64,000 bases of DNA from Bilabrum cf. latius (lineage: Eukaryota), in NCBI GenBank assembly GCA_965178125.1, contig OZ237743.1, positions 186,001 to 250,000 of the forward strand, read 5' to 3'. The translations under genes were made by a program, and so were the position numbers. The notes under the pieces were generated by a model that worked only from the letters and a program-made list of their open reading frames with translations, did no database searches and was not told the DNA's origin. This document shows positions 15,425 through 18,400 of this stretch, in pieces. Each line of letters begins with the position of its first letter. Within the stretch, counting starts at the first letter, position 1.

Positions 15425-18400
15425 TCACGTCGACGCGCGACTGCTGCCGGCCTCCCTTCGAATCCCCCACTCGTGCCCTCCCTCCCCGCACATGCGCCTC
15501 CACGCCCGGCGAATCGCATCGTCCTGCCCGGCCTCGGCCGACTGAGTCAAAGCCGCGAGCTGCTCTGCAAGCGCAGTCCTCGCCAGCACGATCTCCTCCA
15601 GCCTCGTGGAAGCGATCGTGTGCCTCCAGAGGGACCGCTGCCACGTGTCGCTGGCGGCACGGGCCCCCCGGTCTGCCTCGGCAATGGCCCGCCCCAGCTC
15701 CCTCACCTTTGCTGCTGGGAGTAGCCGTACCGCGTCACGCCCCGCGGCGATGCGCTGTGCGCTCAGGGTGGATCTGCGCGCGCCCAATGATCGGGCCTCG
15801 CCAGCTGCGACATATTCTTGGCCGTCCCTCGTTGCTTCTGCGGGCACTTCCAAAGCATGTTGGGCGCCGGATGCATTACCAGCTGCTTGGATGTCTGTTG
15901 TATCGGAGATAGCTTCCGTACTTGCTGCTTTGATGCTTGCTTCGCTGCCTAGCCGCACGAAATCTGCTCGATCCTACGTACCGCTAGCAGGTGTGGGGTC
16001 GTGCGCACCACCGGAGTCCTCGCCGGTCGATTGAGCCTTTTCTACCAAGTCGAGGCTATGCGACGTTCCTGCTGTATCGATAGACCCATTGGAACCGCCA
16101 GTCATGGCCCCTCGAAGAGTCTCTGATAAGTCCCGCTTGCGGTTCAGCAGCACTCGCAACCGAGTCCCCGCAGCCTGCTCGGCTTCATGTGTCGCCACAA
16201 AGTCCCCCCTCGCCAGCTGCTCCGCGTCTCTCAGTGCGAGCAGCTTCCTTTTGAGGTGCACCGCGTCTGCCTCCAGAGAGCGGTTGATCTCCGTGAGTTG
16301 GGTGCGCAGCGTGGCCAGCTGTCCCAAGGAAGGCTCCACGGTCACACTTGCGGCAGGCGCCTCCTCGTGCCCTATACGACTACTCTCCGCACGGGCCGAG
16401 CCATTGCCAGCCTAACGAGTGTGAGTCTCAGCAGGCTGATCCTCGACGCGGATTGGGCGCCTCGGTGTGCCAATCAGCCGGCCACTTCCCATTCGCGGAA
16501 GCGACGGCTTGCCTGTACCTGTAGATGATGAGCGGGCAGACTTGCTGCTGGAGCTCTGTGCGGCACCGTTGGCTCCCGGGCCTCCTGCGGCCGAGCCAGG
16601 AACGGCTCCATCCCCGGCACGCAATTGCTGCCCAGGGCGGGATCCGATGGCATCCAGCGGTGCGTCGCGGTCCGCGACTCGCGCACTATCTTTGCGAGGG
16701 CTTGCAGGGGTCGCTGCGGGCAGCGATCCTCTCGATGATGATGATGGCGATGGCGGTTCAATGGCGCTCTGCCTAGCTTGATGCGCCACACCCTCCCAGC
16801 TAGACACAGGCGGCAAAATGGGCATCTGTCTGGCGCTCTCGGCATCTCTTGGACCCATCGTTTCGAGGATGCTGCGGCGGTGCGAGGCCGGCTCCAGGAG
16901 CCCTAGCCCTCGGATGCCACCGTCAAACTGCAAGCGGCGTGCCGTGGGATCTGCAGCTGCTGCTGCGCGCTGCGCCGCGGCAGATCTCTCGTCCAGTGGA
17001 GCCGGCTGTGGTGCTTCGGTCCCTTCCGCTGCTAAACCACCTGCCTGTACATTTGCCCCTCTTTGCGATTGCGGGGCACTTCCACCGACGAGCGCACTGA
17101 TGGGCAACAAGAGCCAAGACACCTGACTCACAATGCCGCTGCCGGGGGCCGCACCAGGAGAAACCTCCTCCCCCTAGGCCCGAGCTTCGCCTGATTCTAA
17201 TCCCGACTTCTCATCTGCACCATTGCTAGTGGTCATCGATTCTGCAGCGATACGGTTGCTTCCAGCCCCATCACGAGGCCGATCAGCCCCATTGCCCACG
17301 TCTGCAGTTGTAACCAGACCCCGCTGCTCTATTCCATGCCTTTGGACTTGCTCCTACTCCTAGTCCTAGTCCTAGTCCTAGTCCTGTTCTTTCTCATCTT
17401 CCGATCCAGTACCCTTCGGATCCTGGACGATCTCATCGGTCCCATCCTGCCCTGGTTCATCCGCTAGTACCCCGATCCCTGCCAGTCTGCGCGCAAGCTC
17501 GCCCGCCTCCTGCAGCACGTGGCTCGGAGCGAGCTGCAGCCTCAGTCGCAGCGCAGCCACCGCGTACTCTGCCTCTAACCTTCCCATCTCGCTGCCCTCG
17601 GGGAAGCATGCCTCCAGCTCTGCGTCGATTAGGCCACGCATGCGGTCGGCGTCGAAGATGGGAGACAGCGCGACACCAACTGCAAGCAGCCTGGCTTCCT
17701 CAGGATCTGCTGACCCTGATTCTTCGTCGCTGGTAGAAGCTGCTGCCTTGCCTAAGCTCGGTTTCTGATCCGCAGCACCGGCTGCGATCGGACCGCGCGA
17801 GAGCTGCAGACACGAAGCAACAAAAGCAGCGTCTCGTCCTTCTTCTCCTGAAGCACTCGCAAGCGCCGGCTTCGCCCCAGAAGACCCGTCGTTCTAAGCC
17901 TCCTCGCCCTCTTTGTTTCCCCTTTCGCCGCTGCTGCACACCGCCCGGCACCCCTTGGCCACCAGCCGCCTCCAGTCCCTCATGAACTGGGCCACCTCGA
18001 CCATGCCGGCCTCGGCCAGCGCGGCGCGGCTGGCACGCAGCAGGCCCACGATGGCGGCAAAGAGCGCGGCCCACCCGTGCACCGCCATGCGATGCATCAC
18101 GGCAGCGAAGGCCGGGGGAGGCAGCGAGGCTCCCAGGAGCGGAACCACCCATTGCGCGGCGAGGGACCGCAGGGGCATACCGCTGGCTTCGAGCGCCGCT
18201 GCCACTTCGGGCAGCTAGTCCTGCACGCAACGTTCCAGCATCCAGCACCGTTGCTGCACGCCTGCCAGCGAGTCGTTCCACACGTCGGCGCAGCCCAGCC
18301 CGTCCACCAGCGTGAGCAGGCACAGGACCACCAGCTCCGTGGCTGGACGCCCCGATATTTGCTGCTCTGCGCTCGAGCCGGTCCCGCGAACCTGATGGAG

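Follow-up and report, generated by a model that had tools for sequence, protein, structure and literature searches.

UAG most probably encodes glutamine in a GC-rich, gene-dense 64-kb locus of Bilabrum cf. latius

Results

TAG codons in long reading frames

The window analysed here is a stretch of 64,000 nucleotides of contig OZ237743.1 (positions 186,001 to 250,000, forward strand), assembled under the name Bilabrum cf. latius, and the question it raises is which amino acid is encoded by the UAG codons of its genes. The sequence has ~61% GC, genes are densely packed on both strands, introns are few and small, and large low-complexity proteins are encoded. Within a RabGAP-TBC gene the minus strand from 17392 to 17342 reads, after an initial AAA, GAA CAG, then GAC TAG four times, GAG TAG, GAG CAA and GTC CAA. 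The repeat comprises eight two-codon units, each with CAG, CAA or TAG in second place (five TAG); with q denoting TAG, the units are in order E-Q, D-q (four times), E-q, E-Q and V-Q. Four similar strings lie elsewhere: CAG CAG CAG TAG CAG [63385-63371(-)] in the open-ended frame at the right end of the window, AAG TAG CAG AAG CAG TAG CAA [46847-46827(-)] within a 3885-codon frame with leucine-rich (LRR_6) repeats, TAG TAG CAA [38106-38098(-)] inside an MRS2-like gene and CAG TAG [52013-52018(+)] inside an ABC1 kinase gene. The initial annotation had drawn attention to TAG interspersed with Gln codons in these five strings, and each is present at the position and on the strand that it gave. All five are in frame, in long open reading frames (ORFs) that are open only when TAG is read through.

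Stop-to-stop ORFs of at least 300 amino acids (aa) were compared across the window under four readings. The standard code gives 26 ORFs (11,946 aa in total, longest 917 aa), and reading through TAG gives 44 (28,439 aa in total), the longest being 3885, 1795, 1763, 1603 and 1203 aa. Reading through TAA gives 29 ORFs (13,057 aa in total, longest 917 aa) and reading through TGA gives 83 (37,325 aa in total, longest 988 aa), the many short frames in the latter case being the chance yield of sequence with 61% GC. In 13 long frames (14,801 codons), each compared with its two other frames, TAG occurs 95 times in frame versus 101 and 106 times out of frame. TAA occurs twice in frame versus 35 and 40 times out of frame, both in-frame cases being closing codons, and TGA occurs ten times in frame, every one a closing codon, versus 225 and 236 times out of frame. 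All 12 closed frames end in TGA (10) or TAA (2) and TAG closes none; one of these 12 ends, at 25224, is intronic and no true stop. There is no internal TAA in the 14,801 codons, and the 3885-codon frame has 33 TAG and no TAA; given the stop frequency seen out of frame, a frame of that length free of TAA and TGA has a log10 P of about -30.8. The first TAG of this frame lies upstream of its first ATG and may be untranslated. After removal of one intronic TAG the refined set comprises 12 genes and 14,546 codons, with 92 TAG beside 623 CAG/CAA, so that TAG would make up ~13% of Gln codons. TAG is a sense codon in this DNA, and TAA and TGA (mostly TGA) still end genes. The TAG-bearing genes and frames are collected in Table 1.

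Table 1. TAG-bearing genes and frames of the window, in order of position.
Feature	Position	Strand	Details
Open-ended 788-codon frame	1..2364	-	4 TAG
403-codon frame	8592..9803	-	3 TAG
RabGAP-TBC gene with the two-codon repeat	15425..18805	-	1126 codons, 12 TAG, TGA end; PF00566, E = 2.7e-14
Core of the two-codon repeat	17348..17386	-	In RabGAP-TBC gene
1763-codon frame	19381..24672	+	6 TAG, TAA end
HSD17B10-like short-chain dehydrogenase	24829..25788	+	Exon 1 24829-25086, exon 2 25249-25788
Large membrane-protein gene	28391..33598	+	1735 codons, 13 in-frame TAG
736-codon frame	33800..36010	+	3 TAG; a contig of run X5 spans the whole frame with 0 differences
MRS2-like Mg transporter gene	36178..38637	-	5 TAG
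LRR_6-repeat frame	38775..50432	-	3885 codons, 33 TAG, TGA end
445-codon frame	50365..51702	+	1 TAG
ABC1 atypical kinase gene	51839..53926	+	3 TAG
PINK1-like protein kinase gene	54763..56409	-	3 TAG
Kelch-repeat protein gene	56442..61253	-	1603 codons, 6 TAG
Open-ended frame	62624..64000	-	4 TAG

The RabGAP-TBC frame begins directly after a 200-N assembly gap (18807-19006), the gap lying inside the gene. The HSD17B10-like gene has a GT..AG intron of ~162 nt and a single coding TAG (25003-25005). In the large membrane-protein gene, which is preceded by an intron at 28280-28388, TAG codons are located at 29666, 30053, 30278, 30287, 30350, 30731, 30764, 30938, 31379, 31409, 31586, 32354 and 32876; no Pfam family matched this gene.

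TAG in processed transcripts and in an allelic variant

Contigs assembled from two sequencing runs, X5 and X6, splice the HSD17B10-like gene from 25084 to 25247 across its 162-nt GT..AG intron. The RNA origin of these contigs is deduced from the splicing, the runs carrying no recorded RNA label. The spliced contigs of both runs keep the TAG at 25003 and show 0 differences from the window. Three more small introns are spliced in X5 contigs, 26159>26247 and 27409>27494 (both CT..AC) and 28279>28389 (GT..AG), the first of them also in X6. Contigs of run X1 are unspliced through the introns 25084-25247, 27409-27494 and 28279-28389. X5 contigs of 4101, 2325 and 3912 nt match 29404-33504, 33698-36022 and 38733-42642, which cover TAG-bearing genes, again with 0 differences. 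Since the spliced contigs are identical to the DNA at TAG, the codon is kept in processed transcripts and is not edited to CAG.

A variant DNA contig of run X1 carries a T>C change at 29666 that turns a TAG codon (29666..29668, plus strand) of the membrane-protein gene into CAG. Among 40 of the 57 variants listed for this second haplotype, the others comprise 19 synonymous and 20 nonsynonymous changes, which fits a coding frame. As evidence for glutamine, this single TAG>CAG event is only suggestive. The X1 variant contigs are 1.4-2.2% divergent over 28448-30031, as a second haplotype or a paralogue might be.

Relatives of the membrane-protein gene

Conservation is poor in most genes of the window, and their TAGs lie away from columns that can be aligned; the membrane-protein gene is an exception. 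A HMMER search with the first 1200 residues of the membrane-protein gene, TAG being entered as X, finds 63 proteins, all of them unnamed metagenomic fragments (65-546 aa, 32-91% identity); an additional word-index search for short relatives gave four matches, none new. Of the 29 fragments that align to their last residue, two end exactly opposite a window TAG and three opposite CAG. Ends at Q or TAG (5/29) exceed the 4.75% share of Q plus TAG (P = 0.011), which suggests that standard-code gene calling truncated the fragments at TAG codons of their own.

Homologous DNA was found in metagenome contigs, denoted L001-L003. In L001 the homologous frame is 1678 codons long and includes 20 TAG (57-5090); L002 has two frames, one of 841 codons with 7 TAG (2970-5492) and one of 831 codons with 14 TAG (1-2493). 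These frames gain no length when TAA is read through; they need TAG, not TAA, to be read through, and the relatives therefore share the pattern of the window. The three contigs have a GC content of ~55%, and in L001 a short-chain dehydrogenase gene adjoins the membrane-protein homologue, as it does in the window.

The residue facing each TAG was taken from the nearest homologue, with the window gene, L001 and L002 each used as the focal sequence and 0.5 set as the minimum local identity over ±10 residues. At the 16 qualifying TAG sites the nearest residue is Q in six cases, A and T in two each, and E, G, H, M, N and Y in one each. In the control, Q lies opposite true Q at 31 of 74 sites, and other focal residues give Q at a rate of at most 0.095 (K, 2/21). 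Six or more Q at 16 sites would arise with a probability of 0.0025 if the rate were 0.095 and of 1.6e-6 if it were that of Ser (0.025); for Gln itself, six of 16 is a typical outcome. Relative to Q, the empirical log-likelihoods over these sites are -9.6 for N, -13.6 for E, -14.7 for K, -17.0 for Y, -17.8 for S, -24.1 for L and -38.1 for W. If each column is counted once, as the mean over homologues, M scores -9.2, S -12.0, E -13.8 and L -17.7; if the shared column is also counted once, the values are -7.2, -9.6, -12.0 and -15.3 respectively. Across the site and per-column scorings Gln is ahead of the runner-up by 7-10 log units. The initial annotation had proposed such a tabulation of homologous residues at TAG and had named Leu, Glu and Tyr among the residues that would speak against Gln; all three score far below Q in the family.

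Two conserved columns illustrate the result. In the motif PNDTCRQA, the window and seven fragments have Q where L001 and L002 have TAG, and in GYPALxQSE, seven of the eight sequences have Q and L002 has TAG. TAG 30938 of the window lies opposite Q in a fragment with 95% local and 91% overall identity, the two homologues closest at TAG 30287 both have Q there, and TAGs 30731 and 30764 face Q in three homologues each. At the codon level, the three homologues of known DNA sequence give 17 directional pairs, in which TAG is opposite CAG five times, CAA twice, TAG twice and eight other codons once each (AGC, GAG, CGA, GTG, CAC, GCC, ATG and GAT).

Other columns and codon neighbourhood

In the HSD17B10-like gene the window peptide, followed by TAG and DAV, aligns without gaps to PADVTSEKDVQTAL in four human HSD10 chains (PDB), all of which have Q opposite the TAG. 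That observation of the initial annotation stands. Its further claim, that the human sequence establishes TAG at a Gln position, does not hold in that form, since the HSD10-type chain 7n09 has Lys at this place and the column is thus variable. Among the best 120 of 555 longer homologues, the set to which all counts for this column refer, the residues are Q 35, R 20, G 11, E 11, A 10, T 9, K 8, S 5, I 4, D 3, V 2 and N 2, with no L, Y or W. Restricting the set to the 85 that reach a local identity of 0.5 leaves Q 31, R 19, G 9, E 7, K 5, A 5, T 3, S 3 and one each of D, I and N. Gln is the plurality residue, though the column is variable.

The codon neighbourhood was analysed at 87 TAG sites, the two-codon repeat of the RabGAP-TBC gene being excluded, which gives 174 immediate neighbours. 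Q accounts for 15 of these (0.086), compared with 0.069 around Q and 0.034 around S (P = 0.00095 versus the S rate). S accounts for 10 (0.057), compared with 0.119 around S (P = 0.0049) and 0.069 around Q. E is found three times in 174, versus 0.079 around E. One TAG of the PINK1-like kinase (55890) lies opposite an Asn of insect PINK1, in a poorly aligned stretch with variable columns.

Discussion

UAG as a glutamine codon

Gln is most probably the meaning of UAG: residues in homologous columns, codons opposite TAG, the sequence around TAG and a single allelic variant point to it, and the proposal of the initial annotation that UAG is a third Gln codon is supported. The window very likely belongs to the nuclear DNA of a eukaryote that is GC-rich, dense in genes and poor in introns, and in whose cytoplasm UAG is translated as Gln and UAA and UGA are kept as stops. 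This codon pattern is that of NCBI table 15, a rare kind of genetic-code change but one already known. Such a code would be served by a tRNA-Gln with the anticodon CUA, a single base different from that of tRNA-Gln(CUG), which would decode UAG but not UAA, and by a release factor eRF1 that would no longer recognise UAG. As UAA is still a stop, the decoder would have to pair with UAG alone, which points to the CUA anticodon.

Several observations weigh against this assignment. The window TAG sites for which homologues exist all fall in variable columns and, because of this, the six window columns taken alone put Q ahead of S by just 2.2 log units and of M by 2.8. A pooled count of all homologues, confined to the window TAGs (local identity of at least 0.4), gives S 16 and Q 11 of 77, a result favouring S by 11.4 that arises from two S-rich columns common to many non-independent homologues; the nearest-homologue and per-column tests replaced this count. 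The strongest column evidence is in large part that of the relatives and would carry over to the window on the assumption that they use the same code. A naive Bayes classifier based on neighbours at ±1 ranks Q eighth at -1.6, with R, L, N and K slightly higher and S at -7.9, and at ±3 it ranks Q ninth at -3.6, with K, T, I and E slightly higher and S at -8.6. This classifier is weak, recovering true Q samples in 46.5% of cases and disfavouring just S, A, G, F and Y. Among the best 120 of 159 homologues of the ABC1 kinase, all three of its TAGs fall in insertions or unaligned tails and are unalignable, and the TBC-domain column facing TAG 18217 is variable, with Q, Y, Y, N and Y in five PDB chains. 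No tRNA gene, and hence no tRNA(CUA), was seen in the 64-kb window or in L001-L003, nor was an eRF1 gene found in the window or these loci; no Rfam family reached its gathering score.

Alternative readings of TAG

The most serious alternative to the Gln assignment is a sense codon for serine, with UAA and UGA as stops, as in the green alga Scotinosphaera, where TAG is found at conserved Ser positions (Li et al., 2021, PMC8271138). The pattern of sense and stop codons would be the same, the ABC1 kinase of the window best matches plants and green algae, the two S-rich columns at 30350 and 30278 placed S first in the pooled count, and Q is only narrowly ahead in the window columns taken alone. 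The nearest homologue nevertheless has S at none of the 16 TAG sites, no TCN codon and a single AGC are found in the 17 codon pairs, and Q outnumbers S seven to one in the HSD17B10 column (35 versus 5). The neighbours of TAG are depleted in S and enriched in Q when compared with those of S, and TAG occurs within CAG runs and in the periodic X-Q repeat. Serine thus seems disfavoured, weakly by the window columns and more strongly by the family as a whole, and we regard it as very improbable indeed. Glu, Lys, Leu, Met, Asn, Tyr, Trp or pyrrolysine are, taken together, also very unlikely. UAG is described as Leu and as Glu in other eukaryotes, the context classifier places some of these residues marginally over Q and the column at residue 260 of L002 is M-rich, but in the membrane-protein family the likelihoods of Glu, Lys, Leu, Met, Asn, Tyr and Trp lie well below that of Q, the HSD17B10 column is devoid of L, Y and W, and E is scarce beside TAG relative to its frequency around E.

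A dual role, in which UAG is a sense codon that retains some function as a stop, is unlikely, if less so than a different amino acid. Dual codes have been described in other protists, and in three genes the last TAG precedes the closing TGA by just 37-45 codons, a spacing within the chance extension expected at ~1.8% stops per codon. Against this, every closed frame finishes in TGA or TAA, and the columns of the ABC1 kinase remain conserved past its last TAG (residue 651), with an Asp six residues further on in 96 of the best 120 homologues. That the TAGs are real stops, in pseudogenes or through sequence errors, or are edited to CAG in RNA before translation is extremely improbable. Frames of 1203-3885 codons are free of TAA and TGA, TAG is equally frequent in and out of frame, the spliced contigs of two runs match the DNA across TAG codons and the same TAG pattern is present in relatives from other samples.

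Comparison with known codes

The nuclear code of Iotanema spirale (Fornicata) is described as reading UAG as Gln with UAA and UGA as stops, for which a tRNA-Gln(CUA) and an altered eRF1 are argued (Panek et al., 2017, PMC5304391). The window agrees with Iotanema in that UAG alone is reassigned, to Gln, and UAA is kept as a stop. Iotanema is an unrelated anaerobic flagellate known in that account from a transcriptome with UAA as the main stop, whereas TGA closes 10 of the 12 frames of the window, which is moreover GC-rich and has an ABC1 kinase best matching plants (land plants at 44-48% identity, with Tetraselmis also among the matches listed). The phyllopharyngean ciliates Hartmannula sinica and Trochilia petrani, and Protocruzia tuzeti, are reported to use UAG alone as Gln (McGowan et al., 2024, PMC11687900). 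They share the codon table with the window, and the code was deduced there in the same manner, from TAG at conserved Gln columns. Those species are ciliates; the genes of the window stand in ordinary chromosomal arrays and have GT..AG introns, its GC content is 61%, and no sign of a ciliate is seen in it. Scotinosphaera (Ulvophyceae), a eukaryote of the plant lineage, resembles the window in that UAG is the sole codon reassigned and genes end in TAA or TGA (Li et al., 2021, PMC8271138). It differs in the amino acid, Ser, which is disfavoured in the window.

In the window, a stop codon appears to have been reassigned to Gln by way of its CAG/CAA neighbourhood, as in the codes that read UAR as Gln. 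This code (NCBI table 6) reportedly occurs in Dasycladales, Cladophorales and Trentepohliales, as Cocquyt and co-workers are said to have described in 2010; it is also used by hexamitin diplomonads and many ciliates. Table 6 was rejected for the window, in whose long frames TAA is never internal and closes two. Decoupling of UAG from UAA is shared with the rhizarian exLh, described as reading UAG as Leu (Panek et al., 2017, PMC5304391), and UAG = Leu is also reported for some ciliate metagenome-assembled genomes. Leu was rejected as well, lying 15-24 log units below Gln and being absent from the HSD17B10 column.

Codes that give UAG and UAA different meanings appear from these accounts to be rare, comprising Iotanema, one rhizarian, Scotinosphaera and a few ciliates. 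Another such lineage, with metagenomic relatives, would add a data point on how the coupling of UAG and UAA is broken. It is possible, and we suggest it tentatively, that the window and its environmental relatives represent an undescribed lineage outside ciliates and fornicates in which UAG is Gln and UAA a stop, a further independent decoupling of the two codons, perhaps in or near the green lineage, for which the one reported change of UAG alone is to Ser. We found no description of this organism's genetic code in the literature, which is not proof that none exists. In practice, standard-code gene callers split the genes of this organism at each TAG; the proteins of the relatives are present in public collections just as short fragments, two of 29 ending exactly opposite a window TAG, and table 15 is therefore needed to annotate this genome and related metagenomic contigs.

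Other features of the locus

Within 24600-44599, contigs identical to the window occur in runs X1, X5 and X6 under at least three coded organism names (A, B and C), and run X7 (coded organism D) contains short pieces identical to the window. The organism may have been co-cultured with others or mislabelled as them.

The best solved-structure match of the kinase encoded at 54763-56409(-) is PINK1 (E = 1.3e-7). Its gene lies near those of the ABC1 kinase and the MRS2-like transporter, which belong to families that are usually mitochondrial. Between the ABC1 and PINK1-like kinase genes, 53954-54843 holds five copies of a 126-nt tandem repeat (68-94% identity to the reference copy).

Two 158-nt copies at 2462-2619 and 8563-8720, 6.1 kb apart, are 100% identical and flank 39-nt tandem repeats (3842-5267) and duplications of ~1 kb (5094/5999/7060, 96%). 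The frames 8592-9803(-) and 1-2364(-) may be one gene, split by an insertion or by an assembly duplication. An array of (CACCAG)n-type hexamers with CACTAG variants extends over 12537-13700 and has a strong GC and AT skew; since all six frames are open in it, the array is uninformative on coding. It is bracketed by duplicates spaced 1.4 kb apart (11896-12195 and 13307-13606, 98% identical; 12484-12573 and 13893-13982, 100% identical).

A spliced minus-strand transcript (25946-27600), with small introns at 26160-26246 and 27410-27493, encodes a product of 124 aa that has one hydrophobic segment, a Lys/Glu-rich tail and no TAG.

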